Sequence record: PV730299.1 | DNA: 64,000 bases | Source: a phage | Direction: 5' to 3' (one strand) | In this document: in pieces, positions 1,073 through 61,803 of the stretch | Layout of the letters: the number at the start of each line of letters is the position of its first letter | Position numbering within the stretch: position 1 is the stretch's first letter | Translations under genes and position numbers: made by a program | The notes under the pieces: generated by a model | Database searches by the model: none | Seen by the model: only the letters and a program-made list of their open reading frames with translations | Told to the model about the DNA's origin: nothing

Positions 1073-1534
1073 CTACTCCGCCAGGGTGATCACAACCATA
1101 TTTAAGACTGTGTCGATAGCTCGGCCTGTTTCCTCTTCATGGAGGGTTTCGGCTCGGAGGTGCACGTCGGTGATGAAATTGTCGATGTGCATTGAAGTCA
1201 GATACGGGCGGTGTTGACTGACCGGGCGGTTGACCAGAACATAATTGCGCAATGTGTTGAAGTCCTGATGAGAGCACCCCGTTGTATCGATACGAAGGAA
1301 GCGTTCGTTGTGACTTGTCTTCAACTCAGTCACCTTGCCAAGGTAGACCAGAGGTCCATTGCGACCGATACGGAACATGACATCAACAACAGACTTGAAG
1401 ATTTCGCGTTCAATCAGTGCGGTGGGTGACCAGCAGATCTCTTCTTTGTCGTCGGCGTACAGGGTGTCGATCACCAGAGGGAGTTGAATGTAACCGAAGT
1501 TGTGCAGTGGGTTGGTGAGTACTTTGTTTGTCAT
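1073..1534 (-). CDS. hypothetical protein
   Basis: 153-aa ORF; AGGAACTATATC-ATG initiation region shared with other early genes; sigma70-like promoter just upstream. Confidence 0.55.
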   Translation of the reverse strand: MTNKVLTNPLHNFGYIQLPLVIDTLYADDKEEICWSPTALIEREIFKSVVDVMFRIGRNGPLVYLGKVTELKTSHNERFLRIDTTGCSHQDFNTLRNYVLVNRPVSQHRPYLTSMHIDNFITDVHLRAETLHEEETGRAIDTVLNMVVITLAE

Positions 1535-3047: not shown

Positions 3048-5330
3048 TTATACAACACAGCTATCGCACTGAGTTTCCTCGGCCTGCTTCAGCTCTTCGT
3101 CTTCCTTGGCGTCCTTGTTTGTGTTGTAATACAGAGTCTTGCCACCCCACATATAGAACGACAGGATATCCTGCATCATCTTGGCGCGAGGGATCTTGCT
3201 GTCAGGGTACTTCTCTGGGTCATACCACGTGTTGGTACTGATGGACTGGTCAACCCAGCGCTGGATGACAGCAGCGGTCTTCAGGTACTCAATACAGTCC
3301 AGATCCCACTTGAGGTCATACATCGGTCCAAGGGTCTCAACGTCCGGGACGACCTGCTTATAAGTGCCGTCCTTGCTACCCTTGATGCTCACCAAGCCCT
3401 TCGGTGGCTCAATGCCGTTCGTTGCGTTGAGGACCTGTGAGGAGCTTTCGGTAGGGGCTACTGCCAGCAGGGTGGCGTTGCGGATACCATAGGTCTTCAG
3501 ATTATCCTTCAACCCATCCCAATCCAGCCCGTATGCCATCCCTTCTGGCTTCTTGCCATTTGGTAGGATATCAAGTGGAAGCGGCTGAAGGTCGGCGGTG
3601 ACCTGCCCATTATTGTGGATGGTTCCGCGTTTACACGCCCCGAACTTCATAGCCAGACGGTTGGACGCCTTGACCAGATAGAAGTGCAGGTGTGCCATCC
3701 ACGCATCCAGCATTTCAAGACCAGCTGGTGAGCCATAGCCCGTGAAGTTCTTGGCCAGGAAGTGAGCCACGTTCACGATACCAACACCCAGAGGACGATA
3801 GTCTTCAACAGCCTTGCGAGCCTGAATCGCTGGATAGTCCTGATATTCCAACAGCATGTCCAGCGCAGACACCAACACGAACGCCACGTCTTCCATTTCG
3901 GTCGGGTCTTCGAATGCTGTCAGGTTGAAGGAAGCCAGGGTGCACAGAGCCACGCGCCCGTTTTCATCGTTGTACTGCTCAAACTCACGGGTCGGCAGGG
4001 CGATTTCTAAACAAAGATTTGAAGAATAAATCGTGTCTAGGTTGAATGGACTGTATTCATTCATGTGATCGACAAACGCGATGTAGATGCGGCCTGTGTC
4101 TGAACGCTGGTCTAACAGCATCTGGAACACCTCTTCTGCCTGCAACTTTTTAGCACGAACCAAACCAGCATCAGCGGCCTTGATCATGTTCTCATACAGA
4201 GTACGGAACTTGTCAACGTCAGCGAAGTATGCTTCATACATTTCGCGGTTGTCTTTCGGGTCGAACAGATACAGAGGCTGCTTGGCAACCAGGCGCTCAA
4301 ACATCACGCGGTTGATCTGAATGCCATAGTCGATACGGCGTTCGCGGTTTTCTTCAGTACCACGGTTGTTCTTCAGAACAACGACGTCATCGAACTGGTA
4401 ATGCCACAGAGGGATGTACGCTGTTGCTGCACCACCACGAATGCCGCCCTGAGAGCACGATTTGAGTGCCCCAGTGAGATACTTGATGAACGGGATCAGG
4501 CCTGTGTGAACCATCTCTCCGCCGCGAATAGGACTACCAATCCCACGGATTGCCCCGACGTCGAAGCCGATACCCGCACGTTTGGACACATAGTCAACGA
4601 TGGTCTTGGCTGTTGCGTTGATAGAGTTCAGGGTGTCATCAGTCTTGATTAACACGCAGGAACTAAACTGACGAGTAGGAGTACGAACACCTGCCATAAT
4701 CGGGGTGGGAAGACTGAACTTGCCTGTGCTGGCATATTCATAGAACTTTTTCACCATCTCCAGGCGGCTGTCTTTGTCCCAGTTAGAGAACAACGCCATG
4801 GCGATGCCCATGTACATGACCTGAGGGGTTTCGTAGAAGATCTTGCTGTCTTTCTTGGAACGGTCGCGCAACAGGTACTTCTCAGTCAGCTGACCCATGG
4901 CCGCCCACGTGAAGTTCTTATCGCGTTTGTGATTGATGACATCGTTCAGCTCGTTGAACTCTTCGGTCGTGTAGAGATCAAGGAACTCACGATCATACAC
5001 GCGCTGTTTGATGTTCTTGACGAAGATGTCCAGCAGGTGAGGCGGCTTGTACTGACCGTAGACAGCCTTGCGCAGATCATACGACTTCAGACGAGCAGCC
5101 ACATACTGGTAATTGGGTTTGTCTACAGAGATCAGTGAAGCCGCAGCCTGGATGAGGATATCCTGAATGCGATCTGTTCTCATGTTGTCGGTGAACTGAA
5201 TCTTCGATGCAGCGATCACCTCTGACATTGACACACCAGACAGGCCATCACAGGCGCGGTCTACGACTGCGTGTAGTTTCTCAATATCAAATGGGACAGA
5301 AGATCCGTCACGTTTTATAACGTTAATCAT
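3048..5330 (-). CDS. nrdA: ribonucleotide reductase class Ia alpha subunit
   Basis: 760 aa; N-terminal ATP-cone (MINVIKRDGSSVPFDIEKL), length matches NrdA (about 760 aa); SD GAGGAACACC-ATG; no intein. Confidence 0.95.
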   Translation of the reverse strand: MINVIKRDGSSVPFDIEKLHAVVDRACDGLSGVSMSEVIAASKIQFTDNMRTDRIQDILIQAAASLISVDKPNYQYVAARLKSYDLRKAVYGQYKPPHLLDIFVKNIKQRVYDREFLDLYTTEEFNELNDVINHKRDKNFTWAAMGQLTEKYLLRDRSKKDSKIFYETPQVMYMGIAMALFSNWDKDSRLEMVKKFYEYASTGKFSLPTPIMAGVRTPTRQFSSCVLIKTDDTLNSINATAKTIVDYVSKRAGIGFDVGAIRGIGSPIRGGEMVHTGLIPFIKYLTGALKSCSQGGIRGGAATAYIPLWHYQFDDVVVLKNNRGTEENRERRIDYGIQINRVMFERLVAKQPLYLFDPKDNREMYEAYFADVDKFRTLYENMIKAADAGLVRAKKLQAEEVFQMLLDQRSDTGRIYIAFVDHMNEYSPFNLDTIYSSNLCLEIALPTREFEQYNDENGRVALCTLASFNLTAFEDPTEMEDVAFVLVSALDMLLEYQDYPAIQARKAVEDYRPLGVGIVNVAHFLAKNFTGYGSPAGLEMLDAWMAHLHFYLVKASNRLAMKFGACKRGTIHNNGQVTADLQPLPLDILPNGKKPEGMAYGLDWDGLKDNLKTYGIRNATLLAVAPTESSSQVLNATNGIEPPKGLVSIKGSKDGTYKQVVPDVETLGPMYDLKWDLDCIEYLKTAAVIQRWVDQSISTNTWYDPEKYPDSKIPRAKMMQDILSFYMWGGKTLYYNTNKDAKEDEELKQAEETQCDSCVV

Positions 5331-6358: not shown

Positions 6359-7153
6359 TTAACTGAAACTCTTGTATGCTGCTGCGAGCTTCTTGTCGTA
6401 CTGGTTCTTGGCATACGCCGGACCATTATAGCGCCGTGCAAATTCAGACCAGTTCTTGTCCTTCAGAGCCTGCCAGAGCTTGGCGTCAGCCTTGATGAAC
6501 TTCACGAATGCCATCAAATGAGCACGTTCTCCTGTCAGGAAGTCGTTGAACATCTCCTTGGCGTTGGCATATCCACAGACCTGGCAGTTGAATCCCATGA
6601 TCTGGAAGAGACCGTAAGAGGCGCTCTCGTACGCACAATCCTCATCGATGTTGATGGCCGCATGAAGTCGATCCAACTCCGCGTCGCCTCCCGTGTACCC
6701 GCCTGCAGAAGGGTTGACCAACGTCGGGTACATATGTCCCATGGCATTCGCCCGAGCCTGTCCGAACTTCGCCATCAACTTCTTATACATGATGTGGCGC
6801 TCAAATAATGTCTTGATCTTACCTGACTTGGTGAAGCCCGTGCCGCGCGACTCAACCTGATTCACCGCCTTGACAGAGGCAAGGTCAACACCCAGATCGT
6901 TAGCAGCATCAATCAGGTCTGACTCAGTTAGATGATCCTGATGGGCGTCTCCAGCGTTGCGAATAGCATAGGAGGTCTTTGGACCCACGATACCATCAAT
7001 GACAAGCCCCGCACCCGCCTGAACAGTCTTGACGGCGTTCTCTGTTGCCTTGCCAAAGATACCATCAGCGACGAGGGTGAAGCCGATTTTGTTGAGGCTA
7101 TCCTGGAGTGCCTTCACTTCAGTGCCACGGTTGCCAAGTTTTAGAATGGCCAT
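6359..7153 (-). CDS. endolysin: two peptidoglycan-binding repeats plus a C-terminal muramidase-like domain
   Basis: N-terminal repeats GTEVKALQDSLNKIGF... and GIVGPKTSYAIRN typical of PG_binding_1; C-terminal domain resembles phage N-acetylmuramidases; start taken at the internal ATG (MAILK) with GGAGGT SD, the track start at 7171 lies inside the leader hairpin. Confidence 0.8.
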   Translation of the reverse strand: MAILKLGNRGTEVKALQDSLNKIGFTLVADGIFGKATENAVKTVQAGAGLVIDGIVGPKTSYAIRNAGDAHQDHLTESDLIDAANDLGVDLASVKAVNQVESRGTGFTKSGKIKTLFERHIMYKKLMAKFGQARANAMGHMYPTLVNPSAGGYTGGDAELDRLHAAINIDEDCAYESASYGLFQIMGFNCQVCGYANAKEMFNDFLTGERAHLMAFVKFIKADAKLWQALKDKNWSEFARRYNGPAYAKNQYDKKLAAAYKSFS

Positions 7154-7159
7154 AAGAAA

Positions 7160-7191
7160 ATACCTCCACAATGAATGTAGAGGTATTTAAA
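7160..7191 (-). promoter_or_regulatory. late-promoter-like TTTAAATA motif plus leader hairpin that includes the SD of the endolysin gene
   Basis: Minus-strand CTTTAAATACCTCTACATTCATTGTGGAGGTATTTTCTT-ATG; same architecture upstream of the gene starting at 49770. Confidence 0.45.
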
Positions 7192-7337
7192 GTGAAAGTG
7201 AACTACTCGAGGAGCTGGGGGAGACTTTGTTCTGAATGTGTCAGCAACCCAGAGAGCGCCTAAAGAGGATTGAATGACTGTGATCTCCTCCCAAGACCTG
7301 ATAGGGGGAGTTGCCTCCCCCATGTTACACGTCTGGA

Positions 7338-7826
7338 TTAGGCCAGTTTGCTCACCAGAGCTTCAACTGCGTCGGCGCTCAGTTTACCCATTTTGACGTA
7401 CTGAGCTTTTGCTTCACCACCAGCCGCTTTCACGATGTCTTCGTTTGCGTAGCCTTTCTTAGGGAAGACCATCACAGAGAAGGAACCGTTGTTCAGCGGG
7501 TTCAGCTGGATGCGACCTTTACCGACTACGATGGTGCCGTAAGTTTCGGTGTTTGCTTCGACAATGTGGATGTCGTGACCCAGGTTTTTCAGCATACCAA
7601 CTTTGTCGGCAGTCTTAGCAACCACAGCTTTGTCAACCACAACCTGCTCTACCAGGGTGAAGCCGTTTGTCGATTTCACTTTACCGTTCAGCAGGTTCAT
7701 GAAGGAAGTTTTACCACCAGTGAAGCCAGCTGCCTGAGCGATGCGGAACATTTCAACTTTAGCAACTTCGGTGTTCAGTTCGAAAGAGATGGTGCCGTTG
7801 GTGATCAGAGTTTTGGTAGTAGCCAT
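7338..7826 (-). CDS. hypothetical protein (likely abundant early protein)
   Basis: 162 aa Ala/Val/Lys-rich; strong SD GAGGAAT and a TTTACT-N17-TATTAT promoter upstream; start taken at MATTKTL. Confidence 0.6.
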   Translation of the reverse strand: MATTKTLITNGTISFELNTEVAKVEMFRIAQAAGFTGGKTSFMNLLNGKVKSTNGFTLVEQVVVDKAVVAKTADKVGMLKNLGHDIHIVEANTETYGTIVVGKGRIQLNPLNNGSFSVMVFPKKGYANEDIVKAAGGEAKAQYVKMGKLSADAVEALVSKLA

Positions 7827-7898: not shown

Positions 7899-7928
7899 TA
7901 TAATAGTGCATCATTATTGAAGAGTAAA
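7899..7928 (-). promoter_or_regulatory. sigma70-like early promoter (TTTACT-N17-TATTAT)
   Basis: Minus-strand TTTACTCTTCAATAATGATGCACTATTAT about 70 nt upstream of the 7826 start. Confidence 0.5.
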
Positions 7929-7961
7929 GTCTTTTTCAATAATTTTTAAAAATTATTTTTG

Positions 7962-9526: not shown

Positions 9527-9880
9527 TTACGACAGCTGCTTCAGTTTGTAGATCGTCTGATAGCACAGTGTCTTGATATCGTCAAGAGTGCTCTGAAGGT
9601 GGGAGTCACACTGCTTGTAGATGCCATCGACGTCTATCACCACACTGTTAATATAGGAGATAGGGTCTGGGTTGTACAATTTGATATTCTCGAATGATGG
9701 AACATACTGACCACCCGCACCGATGTATGCTTCGGTAAACGTGTCCAGCAAGTCCTCTAGATCCCCGTAGAACTCCCCGAGTGCCTTGTGCTTGGCATAG
9801 GACGTTGTAACGAAGTGTAAGGCATGAGAGTGGGCTATAGCAAGCAGTCCACGGTTGATGAAAATACTCGCATTGACCAT
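9527..9880 (-). CDS. hypothetical protein
   Basis: 117 aa from MVNASIF; the track start at 9940 reads through the upstream terminator hairpin; SD AAGGAAAC. Confidence 0.5.
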   Translation of the reverse strand: MVNASIFINRGLLAIAHSHALHFVTTSYAKHKALGEFYGDLEDLLDTFTEAYIGAGGQYVPSFENIKLYNPDPISYINSVVIDVDGIYKQCDSHLQSTLDDIKTLCYQTIYKLKQLS

Positions 9881-9892
9881 GATTTGTTTCCT

Positions 9893-9925
9893 TAGAAAAA
9901 GAAATCCCCCTGTATTTAGGGGGAT
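9893..9925 (-). terminator. rho-independent terminator
   Basis: Hairpin ATCCCCC-N8-GGGGGAT followed by TTCTTTTTC on the minus-strand transcript. Confidence 0.6.
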
Positions 9926-9974
9926 CCAGTTACAGACCAAGTTCTTTCGCCGTGGCGTCGTCTAGTGCAACCTT

Positions 9975-10569: not shown

Positions 10570-10577
10570 TATTTATA
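10570..10577 (-). promoter_or_regulatory. T4-type late promoter core TATAAATA
   Basis: Exact TATAAATA on the minus strand immediately after the terminator hairpin of the upstream gene. Confidence 0.45.
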
Positions 10578-18832: not shown

Positions 18833-19940
18833 CCAGTTTGTTCAGGCGTTGTTGGGCAGCATTATAGAAGTGCTCTGCTAGTTTACAGACATTGTCGGGG
18901 CGCTGAATGTTGTTCCCTGCGCGGATATCCTTCTTCAGGACTTCCACCGCATCGGTCGCCACCATCTCTTCGGTGACCTCAACCTTCTCGGCAGCAACAG
19001 TAATCGTCCGGTCGATGAAGTTGTAGTCAATACACTTGCATCGCTTCATGGCATCACAGAACTTTTCATAATGCTTAGCATTGTCGCGGTTCTGTACAAT
19101 AACCTTAACGATTTGCCCTTCAATACCCAAGCCTGTGTTCAACCATTCCGGGTCGATCCAATTACCTTCTTCATCAGAGGACAACTTGGTGTAATCATAT
19201 TCCACATAGCGGAACAGCGTCTGGTGCTCGGCGTTCGGGATAAAGATCTCACCACCACGCATGTCGTCCACATAGAAGCCACGGTTAGTGCCGTCTTTGT
19301 AGTCTTCCCAGTTCAGGTGATACGGAGTCCCAATATATTGAATGTTACCTTCCATCGAACGGGTATGGAAATGCCCCGTGTCGACCCTGGTAAACTTGGA
19401 AAGCAGAGCAACGTCGATCTGACCGTGATCACAAGTAGAAGACTGGTACATTTTGAACCCCGCCAGCTCCAGATGCGCAAAACAGTACTCGGCGTCTGTA
19501 TCTTGTATCGCTTTAATAGACGCATCATAGTTCTCCTTGTTGATCCAAGGCAGCAGCAGAGTCTTGACACCCTCGATCATCACTTCGGTCGGTTCGCTGT
19601 AATAGCAGTACACATCCGGGTCGAGTTCGTTCAGGTAGGATGGCCAGTTGATGCGGTTGGACTCTTCCAGGGTGATATCATGGTTACCCACGATGCCATT
19701 CCACTTGATACCAGCCGCTTTCAACGCAGGGGTGAGTTCATCCTTCAGCCAGTCTTTGTCACGACCGTACATGAATTTGCGGACATCAAACGTATCACCG
19801 AACTGCCAGACCTCTTTGATATCAGAGTCGACAAGTTCAGGAATGAAATAATTGATGAGATAGTTCTTGATGAAGTCGCGAACGTATCGAGAACCATTAC
19901 GGCTCCCGATATGCAGATCGCCAATTTTAGCAATCGCCAT
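18825..19940 (-). CDS. 47: recombination nuclease subunit, T4 gp47-like (Mre11/SbcD family)
   Basis: 371 aa; phosphoesterase motifs IGDLHIG, GNHD; placed immediately upstream of the gp46 homologue as in T4. Confidence 0.9.
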   Translation of the reverse strand: MAIAKIGDLHIGSRNGSRYVRDFIKNYLINYFIPELVDSDIKEVWQFGDTFDVRKFMYGRDKDWLKDELTPALKAAGIKWNGIVGNHDITLEESNRINWPSYLNELDPDVYCYYSEPTEVMIEGVKTLLLPWINKENYDASIKAIQDTDAEYCFAHLELAGFKMYQSSTCDHGQIDVALLSKFTRVDTGHFHTRSMEGNIQYIGTPYHLNWEDYKDGTNRGFYVDDMRGGEIFIPNAEHQTLFRYVEYDYTKLSSDEEGNWIDPEWLNTGLGIEGQIVKVIVQNRDNAKHYEKFCDAMKRCKCIDYNFIDRTITVAAEKVEVTEEMVATDAVEVLKKDIRAGNNIQRPDNVCKLAEHFYNAAQQRLNKLDA

Positions 19941-20718
19941 TATTCTGTTTCTCCCGTTCTTCTAATCTTTGTTTGAGGGCTTCCCAATCTGGTTCCATCG
20001 CACAGATATTATCTTCCAGATTGAATTGGGTTTTGCCGAAGTCCTGATCTGAATTGTCTTCGGCCTGCGCTGTTACCGTATTCTTAGCCTGCGCCATGTA
20101 TTGAAGTATGCCTTTCGCAATCTTTTTATTCGATTCTGCGAGACGAGCTGCCTCCACCTTCTCTCGTTCCTTCTGCCTTTGAGCGTCCTTTTTGTTCTCA
20201 AAGTTGCCGATACGTTCACGGAAGTCCATGCCAATTCCTGTAGCATCAACAAAGATCTCTTGTTGGAAGTCGGGATCGTCTGCCAGGCCTGCGAACCCAC
20301 CCGCCTCTTCAAATGAGCGCAATTTGATGTACGTATGTTCTTCTTCGATATTCAGTTTACGAGCAAATGAGCGATCCGCACACATGGTCACCCAAGAAAA
20401 GAAGTTGATCTTCCCTTTCTTTCCAATATGGTCGACGTCAAAGGTGTGGAGGTAACGCAGGATGTTGACGATTGCTTCAGAGACCATGTCTTCACGGAAG
20501 GGATAATCGCGATAGTTGTAGCGGGTACTCATCTTGGTGATGATGCGCTGGACCTGCAGAGCAACATAGTTGGGGATCTTTGGAAGCCTGGTGCCCTCAG
20601 CAAGTGCTTTCTTGCGAGCAGGGATCCAATCACGAAGGATACTAATGACACGCTCGTTGTCTTCGTCCGTGAAATATTTGACGACATTCTCCCCTCTGTC
20701 CACGAAGTTCATTCCCAT
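19927..20718 (-). CDS. 55: late-transcription sigma factor, T4 gp55-like, with C-terminal extension
   Basis: 263 aa; position after gene 47 as in T4 and N-terminal two-thirds resemble gp55; about 80 extra C-terminal residues rich in Lys/Glu. Confidence 0.6.
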   Translation of the reverse strand: MGMNFVDRGENVVKYFTDEDNERVISILRDWIPARKKALAEGTRLPKIPNYVALQVQRIITKMSTRYNYRDYPFREDMVSEAIVNILRYLHTFDVDHIGKKGKINFFSWVTMCADRSFARKLNIEEEHTYIKLRSFEEAGGFAGLADDPDFQQEIFVDATGIGMDFRERIGNFENKKDAQRQKEREKVEAARLAESNKKIAKGILQYMAQAKNTVTAQAEDNSDQDFGKTQFNLEDNICAMEPDWEALKQRLEEREKQNNGDC

Positions 20719-21259: not shown

Positions 21260-21267
21260 TATAAATA
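21260..21267 (+). promoter_or_regulatory. T4-type late promoter core TATAAATA
   Basis: Exact TATAAATA on the plus strand about 36 nt upstream of the 21303 start codon. Confidence 0.5.
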
Positions 21268-21302: not shown

Positions 21303-22070
21303 ATGGCACCCCGCGCATATCGTTTCAGTCTCACCGCCCCGCAGATTGAGCAATTGCTCCTCTCTATCTATGATGCTATCAAGTCAGAAGATATCATCTA
21401 TGATTATGCTGCAGGTGGGACTGCTGGACAAGTCGCAGCAGCGTCTGCTGTCAAGAACATGTGGTTGAAGCTCAACGAGATGGTGACAGGCCAAGGTCTC
21501 AAAGATGCCATCAACGATGCAGAAGACAGCAACGTGTTCACCGACTATTATAAGTCTTTACTGGATCGCGAAGGCTGGAAATTTATTGGATCTCCAGCAG
21601 ATGAACTTCAGCGAGGCGACATCGATACTTCGAACTTCAAAGGTGGTGAGGTCATTCTACTTCAGAAGAACGCTTCGGGCAACCCAGAATTCCAATACTG
21701 GAAGCGAACCCCTGTTGCTGGGGGTGATCCTACCTTTGCATGGGCTTCGGTCTATGAAGGGAACTCCAATGATTCCAGCATAGAGATTCCCGTGGTTGGC
21801 ACCAGCGTACTCAAGGACATCCCCAAGGCACTCTTCCATATGATCGAGTTCAGAGTGCATGTGTACGATGAGACACTGGGTCATTGGCAAGACACCGACG
21901 GGAAGGTGGGGTATCGTGGCGAGGATCTGATCTACAGTGTATACAACCATATTCAGACCAAACCTCTCGCCACCATTGACTTCAGCCAAGATACGGACAA
22001 TATGACGGTTTCTGTGACGTCGTTGGAACCGAATGTCAAGTGCCATCTGTCCTTCGTTGCGGGTTACTAA
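21303..22070 (+). CDS. hypothetical late protein
   Basis: 255 aa from MAPRAYRF; SD AGAGGAATGAAACT-ATG; the track start at 21144 overlaps the antisense RNase H gene. Confidence 0.6.
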   Translation: MAPRAYRFSLTAPQIEQLLLSIYDAIKSEDIIYDYAAGGTAGQVAAASAVKNMWLKLNEMVTGQGLKDAINDAEDSNVFTDYYKSLLDREGWKFIGSPADELQRGDIDTSNFKGGEVILLQKNASGNPEFQYWKRTPVAGGDPTFAWASVYEGNSNDSSIEIPVVGTSVLKDIPKALFHMIEFRVHVYDETLGHWQDTDGKVGYRGEDLIYSVYNHIQTKPLATIDFSQDTDNMTVSVTSLEPNVKCHLSFVAGY

Positions 22071-28027: not shown

Positions 28028-28186
28028 TTAGCGCATCCATCGATCCTTTCTCTCTTTCTCCTTGCGTTCGCGACGTTTCTGGTCGGATCGGAATAACCAA
28101 TAGAAGAAGTTCCCACCCAAGATGAAAACCACCGCGATTATTACTAGGACACCCTTCACAATTTCCCAAACCAATTCTTTATCCAA
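28028..28186 (-). CDS. small membrane protein (TTG start inferred)
   Basis: Hydrophobic segment VLVIIAVVFILGGNFFYWLF followed by a basic tail; SD GAGGTATAAT then TTG; the track ORF 28028-28219 starts at an upstream TTG overlapping the previous gene. Confidence 0.3.
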   Translation of the reverse strand: MDKELVWEIVKGVLVIIAVVFILGGNFFYWLFRSDQKRRERKEKERKDRWMR

Positions 28187-42170: not shown

Positions 42171-42593
42171 CTATTTAGCCTTGCGCGGTTTCGCTTTGGC
42201 GTTCAGCTCAGTGCGTCTCATCTTCTCGCGTATCTCGGCCAGGACTTCCTTCGGCAAGAAACGGACGTACTCCGATGCCTTCTCCATGCTGATGTAGAAG
42301 TACTCTGAGAGTAACTTCACGTCAGGATCAATCGGACCTTTCTTAGACCATTTGTCGTAGCGTTTCCGAGCCGGAATGGTGTAAAAGGCATATGACCATT
42401 GCATCCATGGAGTGATAGCATGTAGCTTATTCATCTGTTGCGCAGCCACTAGAGTGTCTTTGCTCTGAGCTAAACCACGCCGCGTCATAAACGGGTCGAA
42501 TCCTTTCAACACTTCTGGGTCATCAGACCGCAAAAGGTTTTCTTTGCTGCTGTTCAGAGCAGCCAGGTAATCGAACAATCCAAGGGCGGCCAT
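42171..42593 (-). CDS. 62: clamp loader small subunit, T4 gp62-like
   Basis: IPARKRYDKWSK parallels T4 gp62 VPRGKRYGKWAK; located directly downstream of the gp44 homologue; start taken at MAALGLF. Confidence 0.6.
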   Translation of the reverse strand: MAALGLFDYLAALNSSKENLLRSDDPEVLKGFDPFMTRRGLAQSKDTLVAAQQMNKLHAITPWMQWSYAFYTIPARKRYDKWSKKGPIDPDVKLLSEYFYISMEKASEYVRFLPKEVLAEIREKMRRTELNAKAKPRKAK

Positions 42594-43669: not shown

Positions 43670-44338
43670 TTACTCAATCTGTGCGCCGACGAAGTAATTG
43701 ATCGTCGCGTCGGATGATTGGAAGTTCACCATCTGTAGATCAGCACAGGCACGCAGAGTGTAGTTGCCTTCGATCATTTTCAGGTTGGCAACATCCAGCG
43801 GCATTACGAAGTCCGGCAGCGCGGTTTCGCCCAGCTCAACAGTGTAGTTGTTGGAGTTGTCCAGGGTAGTGGTGGTTGCAACCAGGCGTGTTTTGCCACC
43901 CTGAGCAACCAGGCGCACAGTCTTGTGTCCGAGGGTAGAACAGGCGCGGGTCAGTTCTTTCATCTTCTCTGGAGTGATGATCGCTTCAAAGTCAACAGAC
44001 GGCAGTTCAATAGTATCAGCCGGGACAACCGTGAGTTCTTTAGCAGAACGCCAGAATTGCAGCTGAGAGCTTTCGCCTTTCAACAGGATGTAGTCCTGAT
44101 GGAATTCGGCTTTGGCACCTTTGAAGGAAGGTAGGCGCTGGATGGCCAGAAGTTTGGTCAGGTCCAGAATCGGGAACTCAAACGGGAAGTCTTCTTCGAT
44201 CTGCGCCACGGCGATCACAGTAGAAGAATCATTAATACTGCGCAGCATCTTACCCGGTGTCAGAACGATAGATGGGTTGATGGTCTCAAAGTTGGCCAGC
44301 AACTGAAGTGTACGTTCGGAGAGAGTGATCTCTTGCAT
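43670..44338 (-). CDS. 45: sliding clamp, T4 gp45-like
   Basis: 222 aa; N-terminal LQLLANFETIN resembles T4 gp45 LLKNFATIN; synteny 45-44-62-regA as in T4. Confidence 0.85.
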   Translation of the reverse strand: MQEITLSERTLQLLANFETINPSIVLTPGKMLRSINDSSTVIAVAQIEEDFPFEFPILDLTKLLAIQRLPSFKGAKAEFHQDYILLKGESSQLQFWRSAKELTVVPADTIELPSVDFEAIITPEKMKELTRACSTLGHKTVRLVAQGGKTRLVATTTTLDNSNNYTVELGETALPDFVMPLDVANLKMIEGNYTLRACADLQMVNFQSSDATINYFVGAQIE

Positions 44339-46576: not shown

Positions 46577-46604
46577 ACAAAATCTCCCAAGGATTATGGG
46601 GTAT

Positions 46605-47351
46605 TTAGTGATCCGGCCAGACTCCGTTTTGTTCTTTATCCATGCGATGATACAGACGAACACGCTCAAACATCTTAGTCAGAATGTCATCACGGTTGAA
46701 CTCAATTACGGTTGGTAGAGGGGAAGACTCGTTGGCAATCACGTTGATGAGGCGGGTGATCTTGACGCCGAACATCTGCTGGAACATGACCGAATATAAG
46801 CACAGCTGGATACTGTAATCCTCGATCATGCCCCGCGTCTTCATGGTGTTCGATGTCTTGAAGTCGATGACAGCAGGTTTACCCTCATAAACCCCGATAA
46901 GGTCTACACGACCTGCAAGACCAAGCACCTCACTATATAATGGGATCTCCTGAGCATAGATCTTTGTCATCTTGTTCAGGTAAGGGAACAGCTGCTTGAA
47001 CATGAACATGTATTCACCAGCCGCTTCCAACACTTCTTTCATTGGGCGGTTCTTTAGATACAGTTCACACGCAAGGTGCAGCTTCTCCCCTCGGTCAGCA
47101 CAGCGCATGGTCTCAAGATCAGCGGCCTCTGCGCCCAGCTTCTTCCTCCAAGACTCAAGCCATTCATGATCTCCAGTGCGTCCCAGCATAGTCGTGACGG
47201 ATGTCAGTTTAACACCAGACGGTGAAACGTAATGACGACCATTCTCCGTCGTAACACACTCCAGTTCCTTATGAGGAAGTTCGTATTGCTGGAATGTGTA
47301 ATGACGGTTTTCGAAGTCATTCAGCTTGCGTAGATCCTGGAGAGATGCCAT
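46605..47351 (-). CDS. PD-(D/E)xK nuclease superfamily protein
   Basis: 248 aa; GRVDLIGVY...VIDFKTS resembles the D...(D/E)xK active-site arrangement of Cas4/lambda-exonuclease-type nucleases. Confidence 0.6.
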   Translation of the reverse strand: MASLQDLRKLNDFENRHYTFQQYELPHKELECVTTENGRHYVSPSGVKLTSVTTMLGRTGDHEWLESWRKKLGAEAADLETMRCADRGEKLHLACELYLKNRPMKEVLEAAGEYMFMFKQLFPYLNKMTKIYAQEIPLYSEVLGLAGRVDLIGVYEGKPAVIDFKTSNTMKTRGMIEDYSIQLCLYSVMFQQMFGVKITRLINVIANESSPLPTVIEFNRDDILTKMFERVRLYHRMDKEQNGVWPDH

Positions 47352-49041: not shown

Positions 49042-49770
49042 TTACTTCAGCGCATTCTTCAGATTATCGGAACCGATGCTGTTGATGACACCTCCGGCGC
49101 AGATATCTTTCGCCCACTCTGAGATCACGTTGGCGAAAGAGAAGTTAAGACACTTACCAACCATGTCTTGGATATGGGCTAACTCTGCTGCAATACCGTT
49201 CGTGATGTCTTGAGCAATAGAGGCTACTGATGCGACAGCAGTGTCGATGGCTTGAGTAACTTCAGCAGCCAGTGCCCGAATAGCATCAAGACCAGCACTG
49301 ACACCCTGAGCTACCAACTCAGCCAGCTCATTCATCTTGTTTGTGATAGTTGTGAGAACACTTTGCATGGTGTTGATCCACTGTTTGCCGAGGTTCTGAA
49401 TAACCCCAAATGCATTATTGATCAGATCACAGTTGTTCGGTTCTCGACCTATAGACTTCAGGGCGGACTTATACGATACAGATGTACCGATGCGGGAATA
49501 TGCCTCGTTCACTGACTGGTCGCCATAGTTGTTCAAAGTAGTGATGCTGTTGTTGGCTGAGTTGAACATTGCTGTAGATTCGTTGAGTTTGGCTGTAGTC
49601 AACCCACCTGCCGTCAGCGCTTCCTGAATCTGCGCATTTCCGGTGTTAGCCAGTGACTCTGTAGTCGCCTTACCGCTGGTGATCAACCCCTGTGAGGCGC
49701 TGCTGAGGGACGGGAGAGGATTGGTAAAGGCGTTGCCCTGCGATAGGGCGTCATAGATCTGTGCGTTCAT
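49042..49770 (-). CDS. hypothetical late protein (Ala/Ser/Thr-rich)
   Basis: 243 aa from MNAQIYDAL; CTAAATA motif and leader hairpin upstream, same arrangement as the endolysin gene. Confidence 0.55.
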   Translation of the reverse strand: MNAQIYDALSQGNAFTNPLPSLSSASQGLITSGKATTESLANTGNAQIQEALTAGGLTTAKLNESTAMFNSANNSITTLNNYGDQSVNEAYSRIGTSVSYKSALKSIGREPNNCDLINNAFGVIQNLGKQWINTMQSVLTTITNKMNELAELVAQGVSAGLDAIRALAAEVTQAIDTAVASVASIAQDITNGIAAELAHIQDMVGKCLNFSFANVISEWAKDICAGGVINSIGSDNLKNALK

Positions 49771-49777
49771 AAGAAAA

Positions 49778-49805
49778 TACCCCCATGGATGATGGGGGTA
49801 TTTAG
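49778..49805 (-). promoter_or_regulatory. late-promoter-like CTAAATA motif plus leader hairpin including the SD
   Basis: Minus-strand CCTAAATACCCCCATCATCCATGGGGGTATTTTCTT-ATG. Confidence 0.45.
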
Positions 49806-49808
49806 GGA

Positions 49809-49979: not shown

Positions 49980-50020
49980 GATGTATCTCCGCTGTGTGTA
50001 CTCAAATTATTTATGATATG

Positions 50021-53247: not shown

Positions 53248-54579
53248 TTAGAACAGGCCTTTGATCAGCCCTTTACGGAAATACACGTTGGTGTCCTTGG
53301 CGATACCATCCGCAGTCACATAGACCTGTGGATCCTGGTTCGCTGGGATCTGAACGAATGGGTTAGCACAAATCCCGTAGCGGGTCTTGAACGCCATACG
53401 TGGTGCGAAGGTGGTTTCACCCTGGGTGCGGTACATTTCCAGCGGCACGTATGGCGCGAAGAAGATACCAGCATCCAGCGCGGTTGCACCTTTGTATGCC
53501 AGGGTGATGTATTCTGCTACTGCATACGGGTCGATATAGACACGCATACCGTTAGACAGCACACCAGCGAAGGTCTGACCAGTCGGATCAATCGCCAGCT
53601 TGGTGTTTTCCTGCAGCGCCGGAGCATAATCCAGCATGCCGGACATCGCCAGAGCGGATGCTACGTTCGGAGAGCACAGAACACGGTTGCCTTTACCACG
53701 ACGGGTGTCAACACCGATGCCGTTCGCTTCAACTTCCAGCATGAAAGTCATGTACTTCCATTTTTCCAGCGCCCAACGACCGGAGATGTCAGTGGAGATA
53801 TCTACGATACCGTTGGTGCCGAATTTTTTGAAGCGTACTGCGCTGAAGTTCATGGTGCGGATAAACTCACGGTTCATCTCTGCCTGAATTTCAGTTACCA
53901 TCACGTCGGACAGGATGCTGTCAACGTCTTCGCCGTGGATCGCCATCATGTCCTGGCGCAGTTCGTGGCTGTAGTCAGCGTACAGGCCGCGAGACTTCGC
54001 AGTCACGGTTGCTTTCTGAACGGTGATACCAACACGTGCCCATGGGTTGGTGGTGGTGCCCAGCAGTTCAGCGTCGGCAGTTGACATACCTTTACCGATG
54101 GTGGTGGTAGCAGCGCCGGAACCTTCGATCTCAGTCTGGGAGAAGCCAGATGGGTCGCCAGCCTGTGCAGTGTCGTCACCGGAGTAACCGGAGTTGGCTT
54201 CGTTCATGAACAGCTCAGCGCGGGACTGGGCAGTGTTGGAGCCGTCTGCAACACCCTGGCGAGCACGCAGTGCGAAGATCTGACCGTCAGGACCAGACAG
54301 CGGCTGAACGCCGAAGAAGTCCATCGCGATGTTGACCGGAGCCAGGCGTTTGGCCATGTCGATCAGGACTGGCTGCCATTTGCCCACAGAGGCGTTCACG
54401 GAGCCAGGAGCGTCGGATTCGCCCAGGTTTTTGGCGTTCCACTCAGCCTGGTTTTGCAGCAGACGGACGGCAACGTTTTCGGCAGAAAGCGGCTGGATGC
54501 TTTCAGATTCTTTCTGAAGAACTGGCAGCCACTGCTCGCGCATTTGTTCAGTAACAAGTTTCTTAGCCATGATGGTCAT
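53248..54579 (-). CDS. 23: major capsid protein, T4 gp23-like
   Basis: 443 aa; blocks FALRA, NPW, KSRGLYADYS, EMNREF, FAGVL, RVYIDPYA, YKGATALDAGIFFAPYVPL, FKTRYGI, NPF, YFRKGL are collinear with T4 gp23. Confidence 0.95.
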   Translation of the reverse strand: MTIMAKKLVTEQMREQWLPVLQKESESIQPLSAENVAVRLLQNQAEWNAKNLGESDAPGSVNASVGKWQPVLIDMAKRLAPVNIAMDFFGVQPLSGPDGQIFALRARQGVADGSNTAQSRAELFMNEANSGYSGDDTAQAGDPSGFSQTEIEGSGAATTTIGKGMSTADAELLGTTTNPWARVGITVQKATVTAKSRGLYADYSHELRQDMMAIHGEDVDSILSDVMVTEIQAEMNREFIRTMNFSAVRFKKFGTNGIVDISTDISGRWALEKWKYMTFMLEVEANGIGVDTRRGKGNRVLCSPNVASALAMSGMLDYAPALQENTKLAIDPTGQTFAGVLSNGMRVYIDPYAVAEYITLAYKGATALDAGIFFAPYVPLEMYRTQGETTFAPRMAFKTRYGICANPFVQIPANQDPQVYVTADGIAKDTNVYFRKGLIKGLF

Positions 54580-54661
54580 TCCTTACATTGATATTCAGTT
54601 AAGTTGAAATTACTTAGTAGTTCAAAATCAAGCCCCCTTTCGAGGGCTGTGGCTGCTAAAA

Positions 54662-55513: not shown

Positions 55514-55558
55514 GATTGTTTCCTTCTGAACGATTTTCAGTATTTAGTGAGGCTGAAT

Positions 55559-59075: not shown

Positions 59076-59771
59076 TTACACAATTCTAATTAGCTGCCAA
59101 CCCGTCGTGTTCAAACGCTCTGCGGTCGCAGTTTTCCTATGATACACAGACGGTGGTGGAACTGGAATACCCTTGTCGATGTAATCATAGAGTGCTGAAT
59201 ATTTAAGTCCCAACCTCTCCACATATTCACGACAGTTCCCGTGGATTTCGTGTTCTTCGCCGGAAGGAGATACCAATTTGAATCGCTTGGCATTGGAGTT
59301 TTTGGATCCGATTCTGCTCTTTGCAAATACAGATAAACTCTTCGAGAACGAACGTTTGACTCCGGTCTTACAATGTATCAGTTCCCCTGTAGCCCACCTT
59401 GGGTCATCACAGCCAACAAGACCAATTCGCTCTCCTGTTGACGCATCAATAGCACCTGTCTTTCCATAGAATGTCGCACCGTCACCACCCCAAGTTTTGT
59501 TGTACCCTTTCAGGGACATGTGGGTGCCATGCTGCTTAATCAATATGATCTCTAATTCTTTCAAGTCTTTCAGGGACTTGGTCTGGGCTATCACCTGTAC
59601 AGAAAATAATTCTTCTCCATATTTGCGGATAGCCTGATGAACAAAGTAACCAGAGCCGTTTTGAGCGCTGTTACAATGTTCCCACCACCTATCGATGGGA
59701 TCACGCGTGGTGATCCCGATATAGGCTTTCTGATTGACTAGATTTGTAATTTTGTAAACACTTCCGATCAT
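59076..59771 (-). CDS. GIY-YIG homing endonuclease (free-standing, between sheath and tube genes)
   Basis: 231 aa; N-terminal VYKITN...KAYIGIT (GIY...YIG), conserved Arg and Glu/Asn of the catalytic domain, C-terminal basic DNA-binding region. Confidence 0.8.
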   Translation of the reverse strand: MIGSVYKITNLVNQKAYIGITTRDPIDRWWEHCNSAQNGSGYFVHQAIRKYGEELFSVQVIAQTKSLKDLKELEIILIKQHGTHMSLKGYNKTWGGDGATFYGKTGAIDASTGERIGLVGCDDPRWATGELIHCKTGVKRSFSKSLSVFAKSRIGSKNSNAKRFKLVSPSGEEHEIHGNCREYVERLGLKYSALYDYIDKGIPVPPPSVYHRKTATAERLNTTGWQLIRIV

Positions 59772-61751: not shown

Positions 61752-61803
61752 AATCTTATTCCTTCTCTGTAGAGTTTCGCTCAATTTGAAAGATATTTAG
61801 TGA

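Follow-up and report, generated by a model that had tools for sequence, protein, structure and literature searches.

Putative late promoters embedded in hairpins over the ribosome-binding sites of two genes in an Ackermannviridae phage, in an arrangement like that of T4 gene e

The endolysin gene and the gene of a DUF7217 protein in an Ackermannviridae phage are each preceded by a predicted stable hairpin, whose 5′ arm includes part of a late-promoter-like element and whose 3′ arm contains the Shine-Dalgarno sequence. Each of these elements is rather probably a late promoter set within a hairpin that masks the ribosome-binding site, which is the arrangement of T4 gene e. Both elements were found in a stretch of 64,000 nucleotides (sequence record PV730299.1; hereafter the window), whose source is an Agtrevirus-like, ViI-like phage (Ackermannviridae) that encodes a gp55 late sigma factor.

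In the proposed mechanism, the gp55-type core (T/C)TAAATA would form the base of the 5′ arm, and in the 3′ arm GGAGG or GGGGG, the Shine-Dalgarno sequence, would be held 8–9 nt before the ATG. Read-through RNA, either early or middle RNA from neighbouring replication genes or RNA from an upstream ORF, would carry both arms. Its Shine-Dalgarno sequence would be locked in a helix of 12–13 bp, and the gene would stay untranslated. The hairpin may terminate transcription too, and the U-rich tail UAUUUUCUU may in this way stop part of the read-through transcripts. Late in infection, host RNA polymerase with phage gp55 would initiate at ~7178 and ~49793, roughly 6 nt past TAAATA and inside the hairpin. 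The late mRNA would have a leader of 23–25 nt without the 5′ arm, leaving the ribosome-binding site open for efficient translation.

No other hexamer is as enriched upstream of gene starts in the window as TAAATA. When the motif was counted relative to start codons, as proposed in an earlier sequence-only reading of this DNA, TAAATA was observed 11 times in the regions from −70 to −16 of 80 called starts, against 0.69 expected from window composition. This is a 16-fold enrichment, slightly diluted because the gene calls (longest ORF plus a Shine-Dalgarno heuristic) are crude and a few plus-strand ORFs are probably false. Shuffled −70 to −16 regions hold 2.2 copies on average, and none of 2000 shuffles reaches 11. 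The enrichment is directional, as the reverse complement TATTTA does not occur in these regions. The motif is concentrated 23–42 nt upstream of the start codons of structural and late-type genes. The distance from motif to ATG is 25–42 nt on the coding strand at the 11 window sites preceding a start (Table 1), and a purine lies 6 nt after TAAATA at 9 of 12 motif sites in the window. In PC3, a close relative with a genome of 155.9 kb, 14 of the 19 CTAAATA sites have a start-like ATG 15–49 nt downstream, against a background of 6.1%. The genes behind the motif include sheath, scaffold, endolysin, UvsW, and orthologues of virion proteins confirmed by mass spectrometry.

Table 1. Late-promoter-like motifs, hairpins and associated genes in the window (distances to ATG are on the coding strand; predicted starts follow T4 geometry).
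Feature	Position	Strand	Remarks
TTTAAATA, late-promoter-like −10 element, endolysin	7184..7191	-	last five bases AAATA are the base of the hairpin 5′ arm
Endolysin hairpin	7158..7188	-	5′ arm 7188-7176 (AAATACCTCTACA), loop 7175-7171 (TTCAT), 3′ arm 7170-7158 (TGTGGAGGTATTT)
Tail TCTT of endolysin hairpin	7157-7154	-	followed by ATG at 7153
Endolysin Shine-Dalgarno GGAGG	7163..7167	-	wholly within 3′ arm; read from sequence
Predicted late transcription start, endolysin (A)	7178	-	6 nt after TAAATA; predicted from T4 geometry
Endolysin gene, PG_binding_1 (PF01471) and Muramidase PF11860	6359..7153	-	profile matches
CCTAAATA, late-promoter-like element, DUF7217 gene	49799..49806	-	CTAAATA at 49805; 49805-49795 is an exact CTAAATACCCC
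DUF7217-gene hairpin	49775..49803	-	5′ arm 49803-49792 (AAATACCCCCAT), loop 49791-49787 (CATCC), 3′ arm 49786-49775 (ATGGGGGTATTT)
Shine-Dalgarno GGGGG of DUF7217 gene	49784-49780	-	hairpin tail TCTT, then ATG 49770
Predicted late start, DUF7217 gene (A)	49793	-	predicted from T4 geometry
DUF7217 protein gene	49042..49770	-	profile covers residues 1-242 of 242
CTAAATA, tail sheath (gp18-like)	61794..61800	-	42 nt before ATG 61751; without hairpin
CTAAATA, scaffold (gp22-like)	55541..55547	-	27 nt before ATG 55513; without strong hairpin
ATAAATA	50008..50014	-	28 nt before ATG 49979 of 56-aa ORF (phrog_4845) directly upstream of DUF7217 hairpin
CTAAATA (exact CTAAATACCCC), UvsW	46602..46608	-	25 nt before ATG 46576; hairpin weak, imperfect
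CTAAATA, RegA	42172..42178	-	30 nt before ATG 42141
Exact TATAAATA	10570..10577	-	25 nt before ATG 10544; orthologue LIMEstone1 ORF080 is a confirmed structural protein
Terminator-like hairpin, CTAAATA (9919-9913) in loop	9902..9927	-	32 nt before ATG 9880
TTAAATA	1099..1105	-	31 nt before ATG 1067
Exact TATAAATA	21260..21267	+	35 nt before ATG 21303; orthologue LIMEstone1 ORF093 is a confirmed structural protein
gp55-type late sigma factor gene, presumed motif reader	19927..20718	-	phrog_234, E = 6e-52

The T4 core TATAAATA is present in exact form at only two window sites, before the genes at 21303 and 10544, both of which had been named in the sequence-only reading. The CTAAATA or TTAAATA copies it listed before endolysin, the gene at 49770, the gp18 and gp22 homologues, and uvsW were all found. 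Its suggestion of a core relaxed to (C/T)TAAATA is supported by the directional enrichment, by the genes for gp55 and the gp45 sliding clamp homologue (43670-44338), and by the annotation of the same sites in Dickeya phage LIMEstone1. With ATAAATA included, this in silico evidence supports a T4-type late-promoter core that is relaxed here to roughly (C/T/A)TAAATA, and the true tolerance is perhaps wider, CTAANTA. Homologues of gp55, gp33, and gp45 in ViI-like phages were reported in the CBA120 paper (PMC3184105). T4 late promoters occupy −13 to −6 and prefer AT-rich sequence just after the box (PMC2988020). The bases right after TAAATA are GC-rich at both hairpin loci (CCCCC, CCTCT), which speaks against T4-type initiation there, although T4 e itself has CCTTC.

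The late-promoter motif itself is already known and annotated in this phage group. A Viunalikevirus regulatory motif, CTAAATAcCcc, was reportedly described by Adriaenssens et al. in 2012 (Arch Virol). It is quoted as a Viunalikevirus or Ackermannviridae motif in PMC7283392. The window has two exact copies of this 11-mer CTAAATACCCC, at 49805-49795 and 46608-46598, and four matches with one mismatch allowed, against 0.44 expected. In LIMEstone1, 33 'putative late promoters' are annotated (PMC3296691, GenBank HE600015), and such features lie at sites orthologous to those of endolysin, the genes at 9880, 10544, and 21303, UvsW, DUF7217, and the 56-aa ORF. The endolysin feature falls exactly on TAAATA (54277-54282), and the DUF7217 feature sits 6 nt off it. 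In the sources consulted, the motif figures only as a sequence signature or a T4-like −10 box, and the hairpins are annotated separately, as terminators. No statement was found there that 'cCcc' pairs with the Shine-Dalgarno sequence or that the promoter lies inside a hairpin hiding the ribosome site. No Rfam family matched anywhere in the window, and the literature searched yielded no transcription start sites, transcriptomes, or 5′ or 3′ transcript ends for Ackermannviridae. The minus-strand terminator coordinates of LIMEstone1 are shifted by their own length in all six cases checked.

The leaders of the two genes, TTTAAATACCTCTACATTCATTGTGGAGGTATTTTCTTATG (endolysin) and CCTAAATACCCCCATCATCCATGGGGGTATTTTCTTATG (49770 gene), have nearly identical 3′ parts, GG(A/G)GGTATTTTCTTATG, as the sequence-only reading had described. 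That reading also saw a hairpin with the Shine-Dalgarno sequence in its 3′ arm at both loci, which is borne out by predicted stems of 13 bp (endolysin) and 12 bp (DUF7217). It placed the hairpin after the motif, but the 5′ arm, which begins AAATACC, overlaps it. At both loci, and in every relative compared, the first 5 nt of the 5′ arm belong to TAAATA. Folding gives −18.9 kcal/mol (z −4.2) for the endolysin fragment and −19.5 kcal/mol (z −3.4) for the DUF7217 fragment, and the hairpin is also the predicted minimum-free-energy structure in longer contexts at both loci. The pattern TAAATACC-N8-30-GGTATTT occurs twice in the window and in none of 100 shuffles.

The cost of opening was calculated as the constrained-ensemble energy over the ribosome-binding site (−14 to +3), in read-through RNA and in late RNA. 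Mean unpaired probability over −15 to +3 separated the cases poorly, so opening energy was used instead. The predicted cost for the endolysin site is 17.4 kcal/mol in read-through RNA and 2.6 kcal/mol in late RNA. For the DUF7217 site it is 21.5 and 8.1 kcal/mol, respectively, the latter value meaning that the predicted late leader retains some structure. In relatives (eight endolysin and six DUF7217 leaders), the values are 11–22 kcal/mol in read-through RNA and 2–10 kcal/mol in late RNA. The same script gives 15.5 and 4.1 kcal/mol for T4 e, the experimentally validated case. The Shine-Dalgarno sequence is thus predicted to be sequestered in a stable helix in upstream-derived transcripts. With T4 spacing, the first 10 nt of the 5′ arm precede the start, out of 13 nt at the endolysin gene and 12 nt at the 49770 gene. 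As a start 6 nt after TAAATA lies inside the hairpin, a late transcript of this kind cannot form it. If T4 spacing holds, the hairpin probably belongs to transcripts arriving from upstream and not to the late mRNA. The earlier suggestion that some late mRNAs share a structured leader is probably wrong, because starts at 7178 and 49793 would cut off the 5′ arm. It also conflicts with the late starts 6–10 nt downstream of the motifs on which the same reading had made itself depend.

The hairpin is conserved with compensatory changes. Pair 11 of the endolysin stem is A-U, G-U, or G-C, depending on the relative. In Erwinia phage Ea2809 (58% amino-acid identity) the stem runs for 14 bp without a mismatch, and its upper part differs in sequence. 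Further changes on both sides of the stem, and one inserted G-C pair, occur in the KNP4 and RuvC-like modules. The PC3 RuvC-like stem was also considered as a C-to-G / G-to-C substitution, which was rejected in favour of the inserted G-C pair. The DUF7217 hairpin is kept in Limestone-, Kutter-, Taipei-, and Miltonvirus, and in relatives the module also precedes tail-spike, neck, and RuvC-like resolvase genes, with a tail between 3′ arm and ATG that is fixed at 2–4 nt across modules. In all, the structure and its compensatory changes extend over five or more genera and no fewer than five gene families. Over 16 module instances, 187 of 189 cells are paired. A pair-count tool gives 98% paired, against 89.5% in shuffles (0 of 500 reach it) and 41–62% in slid controls, with 5 of 13 pairs changed on both sides. 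The alignment behind these values had been fitted to the structure of the model, combines paralogous modules, and has some rows from the reverse strand. These counts come from the covariance-model alignment and a script; a MAFFT alignment misplaced two distant sequences and was not used.

A covariance model built from endolysin hairpins alone recovers the DUF7217 module (35.7 bits, E = 1e-4), and also the Ea2809, tail-spike, and RuvC-like modules. On the T4 e leader it finds the exact position, with only 16.6 bits and E = 1.9. Around 60 phages outside Ackermannviridae with homologous endolysins have neither TAAATA nor hairpin, suggesting that the module belongs to the phage lineage and not to the gene. 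An IMG/VR scan for TAAATACC-N8-30-GGTATTT gave, among the matches listed, three informative ones in Ackermannviridae contigs of ~155 kb; most others are unrelated, since the pattern and its reverse complement are almost the same. The compensatory changes and the pair counts support selection that maintains the pairing.

The two loci differ in their surroundings. Endolysin is a late-function gene among replication-type neighbours and shares its strand with primase, PhoH, and nrd genes. Sigma-70-like sites lie upstream of it at ~7900-7940, and LIMEstone1 has a 'putative middle promoter' two genes upstream of its endolysin (HE600015). A 60-aa ORF at 7141-7323 overlaps the endolysin hairpin; it has no family match, relatives differ in sequence there, and it was taken as spurious. 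At the other locus, the DUF7217 orthologue LIMEstone1 ORF129 is a virion protein confirmed by mass spectrometry, and the gene upstream of the hairpin carries its own late-type motif. The need for a block on early expression is not obvious at the DUF7217 locus or at the tail-spike genes. ATG 49812, which forms an ATGA overlap with the upstream ORF, was rejected as the DUF7217 start, since Pfam and PHROG profiles match residues 1-242 of 242 from ATG 49770.

The hairpins could also be plain rho-independent terminators of the upstream unit, with a late promoter packed alongside in a compact genome and a Shine-Dalgarno sequence that falls in the 3′ arm only through TAAATA-CCCC / GGGG-TATTT complementarity. 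Like intrinsic terminators with an upstream A-tract, both elements have a GC-rich stem-loop between AAAUA and UAUUUUCUU, among convergently organised transcription units, and the DUF7217 hairpin begins 5 nt past the stop codon of the upstream ORF. The LIMEstone1 authors (TransTerm, Mfold) marked each of the two hairpins as a 'putative factor-independent terminator' of 28 nt, the endolysin hairpins of L178/L179 have the very terminator-like GGGTTTTTCATT at their end, and two other terminator-like hairpins in the window (9927-9902 and ~15725-15690) have CTAAATA in the loop. We nevertheless regard this explanation as unlikely. Neither hairpin was flagged by a simple terminator scan of the window, and ordinary terminators in the window keep the Shine-Dalgarno sequence outside the stem, whereas these elements include it at a fixed short distance from the ATG, which suits a ribosome-binding site and is needless for a terminator. 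Their U-tract is interrupted in the window, and in PC3 the tail-spike (GGGGTATTATCATG) and neck (GAGGGTATCGATATG) sister modules have poor U-tracts or none, yet they retain the Shine-Dalgarno sequence in the 3′ arm, which points to its concealment, and not termination, as the common feature. In the T4 e precedent, the same pairing acts on translation (PMC3014915). Terminator and translational roles are compatible and do not exclude each other, and with their U-rich tracts the hairpins could even act mainly in termination.

It is improbable that late mRNAs begin ahead of the stem and have the hairpin in common as a structured 5′ leader, serving mRNA stability or as the target of a regulator such as RegA. 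The −10 element would then lie within the transcript, which is impossible for a TAAATA that forms the stem base, and another promoter would be required. A stem of 12–13 bp over the Shine-Dalgarno sequence (17–21 kcal/mol) would repress genes that need strong late expression, T4 has mapped late starts inside a hairpin of the same layout (PMC3014915), and most late-type motifs of the window have no hairpin. In favour of such a leader are the near identity of 3′ arm and spacer at the two loci, the conserved stem, the presence of RegA and a RegB-like gene in this phage, and the possibility of a start spacing other than that of T4. A role of the inverted repeat as DNA, either as the operator of a dimeric regulator or as a cruciform modulating the late promoter, is very unlikely. 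The conserved outer halves AAATACC / GGTATTT are indeed centred on the promoter, but the spacing of the half-sites varies from 4 to 17 nt among modules, and inner arms with compensatory substitutions and a paired insertion point to a folded single strand and not to a protein site of fixed geometry. In addition, G-U (G-T) pairs are tolerated only on the mRNA-sense strand; several reverse-strand matches score lower, and some of their cells break. Least credible of all is functionless chance complementarity, which could arise because both arms hold sequence needed otherwise (promoter and Shine-Dalgarno). The shuffles, the z-scores of both folds, and the compensatory conservation across genera and gene families given above all speak against it.

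The preferred reading, a late promoter within a hairpin that hides the ribosome-binding site, has its precedent in T4. Genes e, soc, 49, and I-TevI use a ribosome-site hairpin whose 5′ strand is missing from late transcripts, with a 100-fold effect on lysozyme (Uzan & Miller 2010, PMC3014915), and the gene e hairpin with internal late promoters goes back to McPheeters et al. 1986, as reviewed in PMC3014915. In the T4 e leader read from NC_000866, TTATAAATACCTTCTATAAATACTTAGGAGGTATTATG, the pairing AAATACCT / GGAGGTATT is as in the window. The 3′ half of the promoter with CCT(C/T) forms the 5′ arm and the Shine-Dalgarno sequence the 3′ arm, so that TATAAATACCTTC...GGAGGTATT-ATG in T4 corresponds to TTTAAATACCTC...GGAGGTATTTTCTT-ATG in the window. 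In both phages the regulated gene is a lysis enzyme amid early or middle genes on the same strand, with similar predicted opening energies in read-through and late RNA. The RuvC-like Holliday-junction resolvase gene, which bears the module in relatives, is a functional analogue of T4 gene 49.

There are also differences. T4 belongs to Straboviridae, its core is TATAAATA and not (C/T)TAAATA, and its lysozyme is unrelated to the window endolysin (BLASTP against T4 e, E = 98). T4 e has two promoters, one in the arm and one in the loop, whereas the window hairpins have one, in the 5′ arm. The window stem is longer than that of T4 e and is followed by a U-rich, terminator-like spacer. Unlike in T4 e, the module also stands before virion genes (DUF7217, neck, tail spikes) with late upstream neighbours. 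The T4 e system is experimentally established, whereas the window modules are known from sequence and predicted folding. Shared constraints can account for the resemblance to the T4 e leader, since the Shine-Dalgarno region is the promoter's complement. The proposed modules would be a further example of the T4 lysozyme timing switch and not a new principle.

A broader interpretation is offered tentatively, and we hold it to be somewhat less than an even chance. The 'cCcc' tail of CTAAATAcCcc would be the anti-Shine-Dalgarno strand and not part of the promoter, and the promoter-in-hairpin would act as a genome-wide insulator on at least 6–7 genes (endolysin, RuvC-like resolvase, neck protein, tail spikes, and the DUF7217 virion protein). 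Translation of each of these genes would be confined to RNA from its own promoter and would never occur on read-through RNA, even behind a late neighbour. The lysis and resolvase genes on which the design would have arisen are unrelated to T4 e and 49. The design would therefore either be an old inheritance of gp55-using phages or result from repeated convergence forced by TAAATA-CC(C/T)C / GGAGG-TATTT complementarity.

ViI-like phages are widely used as biocontrol and therapy candidates. If confirmed, a promoter within the hairpin would explain how they withhold endolysin synthesis until late infection. In 2011, the lytic enzyme or holin of this phage family was not yet identifiable according to the CBA120 genome paper (PMC3184105), and the 2024 Ackermannviridae family review never mentions promoters, transcription, or lysis. 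Confirmation would also correct annotations, as 'terminator' features beside late promoters would probably be translational gates, and a mechanism could be assigned to part of a published taxonomic signature motif. A classic T4 regulatory device would then be known from another phage family and from genes that are not homologous, which would be useful for predicting late and lysis genes in uncharacterised phages encoding gp55 and for engineering payload timing. The hairpin at 9902..9927 presents a second layout of a promoter overlapping a hairpin, in which the Shine-Dalgarno sequence lies outside the stem.

The window shares about 97-98% identity, in mosaic blocks, with Escherichia phages PC3, ZQ1 and AV101 and Shigella phage Ag3, which are Agtrevirus-like Ackermannviridae of the subfamily Aglimvirinae. 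Nearly all of its genes are on the minus strand, and it encodes a gp55-type late sigma factor and a gp45 clamp. The late-promoter motifs listed by the sequence-only reading, among them those preceding the genes for endolysin, DUF7217 protein, tail sheath, gp22-like scaffold and UvsW, were all found at their positions in the window sequence; the RegA gene, absent from that list, is also preceded by one. The minus (coding) strand has 15 copies of TAAATA and the plus strand seven; of these, ten and one, respectively, are situated 25-42 nt 5' of an ATG bearing a Shine-Dalgarno sequence (SD). A motif count relative to start codons, a check suggested by that reading, placed TAAATA as the most enriched hexamer at -70 to -16 of 80 called gene starts (11 seen, 0.69 expected); shuffled segments held 2.2 on average, and 11 was reached in 0/2000 shuffles. 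Its reverse complement, TATTTA, has no copy in these segments. In the complete PC3 genome (155.9 kb), a start-like ATG lies 15-49 nt 3' of CTAAATA at 14 of 19 sites, against a background of 6.1%. The same holds for 6/15 TTAAATA, 5/17 ATAAATA and 4/15 GTAAATA sites, and for no site of control heptamers such as CTATATA (0/8) and CTAAATT (0/6).

These counts support the proposed relaxed core (C/T)TAAATA, but the late motif is already known and is carried as annotation in the records of relatives. Its original source is reportedly the 2012 proposal of the genus Viunalikevirus. Exact copies of CTAAATACCCC are found in the window at 49805-49795 and 46608-46598. In the Dickeya phage LIMEstone1, 33 late promoters were found through T4 similarity (PMC3296691). 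Its GenBank record (HE600015) places a "putative late promoter" exactly on TAAATA at the site orthologous to that of endolysin, and such features also occur at the orthologues of genes 9880, 10544 and 21303 and at the orthologous sites of UvsW, DUF7217 and a 56-aa ORF upstream of DUF7217. The CBA120 paper (2011) described the ViI-like late recognition sequence as yet to be identified (PMC3184105), a 2024 Ackermannviridae review makes no mention of promoters or transcription, and no Ackermannviridae transcript ends were found in the literature searched.

Fifth-base variants of the motif were also observed 25-46 nt 5' of minus-strand ATGs: CTAATTA at 59093, 58486 and 13605 (tail tube, portal and a 986-aa gene), CTAAGTA at 54617 and 56755 (major capsid and a small head gene) and CTAACTA at 28031 (a virion-protein orthologue). 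In PC3, CTAATTA (3/7) and CTAAGTA (3/6) precede start-like ATGs, with a background of 6%, and the late core may be CTAANTA instead of (C/T)TAAATA. Opposite-strand TAAATA pairs at divergent PC3 gene pairs (L155-L157; 110738/110765, 90166/90195 and 25940/25949) are jointly palindromic, as in TAAATAG...CTATTTA, and resemble late promoters placed back to back. Upstream of the minus-strand genes starting at 5330 (nrdA) and 34662, gccTTCAATctacgagggtggcgTATAAT and TTTCAATttgtgcatcacagTATAAT match the other published Viunalikevirus motif, TTCAAT-N14-TATAAT.

The hairpins at endolysin and DUF7217 proved real, with predicted stems of 13 bp (fragment -18.9 kcal/mol, z -4.2) and 12 bp (-19.5 kcal/mol, z -3.4), respectively. 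They had been said to follow the promoter motif; instead, they contain it, as the final AAATA of TAAATA opens their 5' arms AAATACCTCTACA and AAATACCCCCAT. The SD lies within the 3' arms TGTGGAGGTATTT and ATGGGGGTATTT, and four bases, TCTT, separate stem and ATG at both loci. This combination of promoter motif and SD in opposite arms is termed the module here.

Coordinates of genes and modules discussed in the text
Feature	Sequence	Coordinates	Strand	Remark
Endolysin gene	window	6359-7153	-	PG_binding_1 and Muramidase PF11860 domains
DUF7217 protein gene	window	49042-49770	-	orthologue in LIMEstone1 shown by mass spectrometry to be a virion protein
gp55-type late sigma factor gene	window	19927-20718
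RuvC-like resolvase module	PC3	86400-86447		36400-36447 in L156
RuvC-like resolvase module	L059 (relative)	666-714
RuvC-like resolvase module	L098 (relative)	4490-4536

Directly 5' of the endolysin TAAATA, CACTTTCACTTT occupies 7192-7215 (-) and the same place in relatives L159-L177; it is kept in Agtre-, Limestone-, Kutter- and Taipeivirus despite its intergenic position, and not in Ea2809 or L178. A 185-nt non-coding spacer (7200-7338) lies 5' of endolysin where ZQ1, PC3 and LIMEstone1 have two small ORFs, and it holds a strong hairpin, GGGGGAG-gcaa-CTCCCCC (7321-7304, -), without a U-tract.

Several observations indicate that the pairing is under selection. At pair 11 of the endolysin stem, the window has A-U, L159 and PC3 have G-U, and Limestone-, Kutter- and Taipeivirus have G-C; at pairs 9-10, C-G/U-G is exchanged for U-G/C-G among orthologues. 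The stem of Erwinia phage Ea2809, whose protein is 58% identical, is perfect over 14 bp and differs in its upper sequence (CCCTCTGAA / TTCAGAGGG), a core also present in L178 and L179. The DUF7217 hairpin is retained in Limestone-, Kutter-, Taipei- and Miltonvirus with differing loops and one U-A to C-G change. About 60 homologous endolysins of non-Ackermannviridae phages have neither TAAATA nor the hairpin. A covariance model trained on seven endolysin hairpins only recovered the DUF7217 modules (35.7 bits, E = 1e-4), Ea2809 and modules 5' of a tail-spike gene and a RuvC-like resolvase gene, and marginally matched the T4 e leader at the exact position (16.6 bits, E = 1.9). In its alignment, which was fitted to the structure and mixes paralogous modules, standard pairs fill 98% of cells, reverse-strand rows included, against 89.5% in shuffles (observed value reached by 0/500); both sides changed in 5 of 13 pairs, and slid controls gave 41-62%. 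The 16 sense-strand rows are paired in 187 of 189 cells.

In PC3, the module also lies 5' of three tail-spike-region genes (2622, 5456, 155249) and a neck protein gene (17373). Outside the window, it is also found upstream of the gene for a RuvC-like Holliday-junction resolvase (phrog_159, E = 2e-51), with one inserted G-C pair in PC3 compared with Kutter- and Taipeivirus. This parallels T4 gene 49, a resolvase gene with a promoter in a hairpin; the two are functional analogues with unrelated proteins, as are T4 e and the endolysin.

T4 late promoters span -13 to -6 (PMC2988020). If this spacing holds, late transcription would start at A 7178 and A 49793, and a purine occupies the predicted position at 9 of 12 window motif sites. 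The predicted late transcripts would lack 10 of 13 (endolysin) or 10 of 12 (DUF7217) nt of the 5' arm and could not form the hairpin. By calculation, opening -14 to +3 costs 17.4 kcal/mol in read-through RNA and 2.6 in predicted late RNA for endolysin, and 21.5 and 8.1 for DUF7217; 14 relatives show the same contrast. T4 gene e, the positive control in the same script, gave 15.5 and 4.1 kcal/mol, and its leader in NC_000866, TTATAAATACCTTCTATAAATACTTAGGAGGTATTATG, has the same AAATACCT / GGAGGTATT pairing as the window hairpins. Long early transcripts of T4 e, soc, 49 and I-TevI sequester the SD or AUG (PMC3014915). Given the predicted loss of the 5' arm, the opening costs and the T4 e parallel, a timing gate of the T4 e type is the best reading and probably the correct one. 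We infer start sites, timing, translational block and termination from sequence analysis.

The alternative originally put forward, that late mRNAs share a structured leader, is improbable, as the -10 element on which it relies would then have to lie 3' of the transcription start. It is somewhat less improbable, though still unlikely, that the two hairpins are terminators only. Each is followed by the tail UAUUUUCUU, and in LIMEstone1 a 28-nt "putative factor-independent terminator" adjoins each of them. All six minus-strand terminator features checked in HE600015 (loci L033/L034) are shifted downstream by their own length, with the real hairpin immediately upstream, which is a systematic coordinate error; therefore, both hairpins had been noticed by the LIMEstone1 authors, who took them for terminators. 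Two other terminator-like window hairpins (9927-9902 and ~15725-15690, -) hold CTAAATA in the loop. On the other hand, U-tracts are poor in several PC3 modules, which favours SD hiding over termination as the common denominator, and the two roles are compatible. A DNA-level operator is very improbable in view of the variable spacing and compensatory changes. Chance is the least probable explanation; the composite TAAATACC-N8-30-GGTATTT has exactly two copies in the window, and 100 shuffles yielded none.

The two loop-CTAAATA hairpins, with the SD outside the stem, represent a second layout of promoter/hairpin overlap, in which late transcription would begin within the 3' arm and thereby escape termination. 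In PC3 tail spike 2, the annotated start (5483) falls within the hairpin 3' arm (ctATGGGGTATC); the ATG 15 nt downstream (5498), with GGGG as SD, looks the likelier start, and the start of this gene is possibly mis-annotated in several records. A further leader, ...TTTGAA...(A)GGAACTATATC-ATG, recurs at minus-strand ATGs 1534, 13973, 14271, 25422, 28846, 38193 and 51133, often 3' of a GC-rich hairpin and ahead of small early-type genes, and has the look of a repeated cassette carrying an early-gene promoter or a ribosome-binding site.
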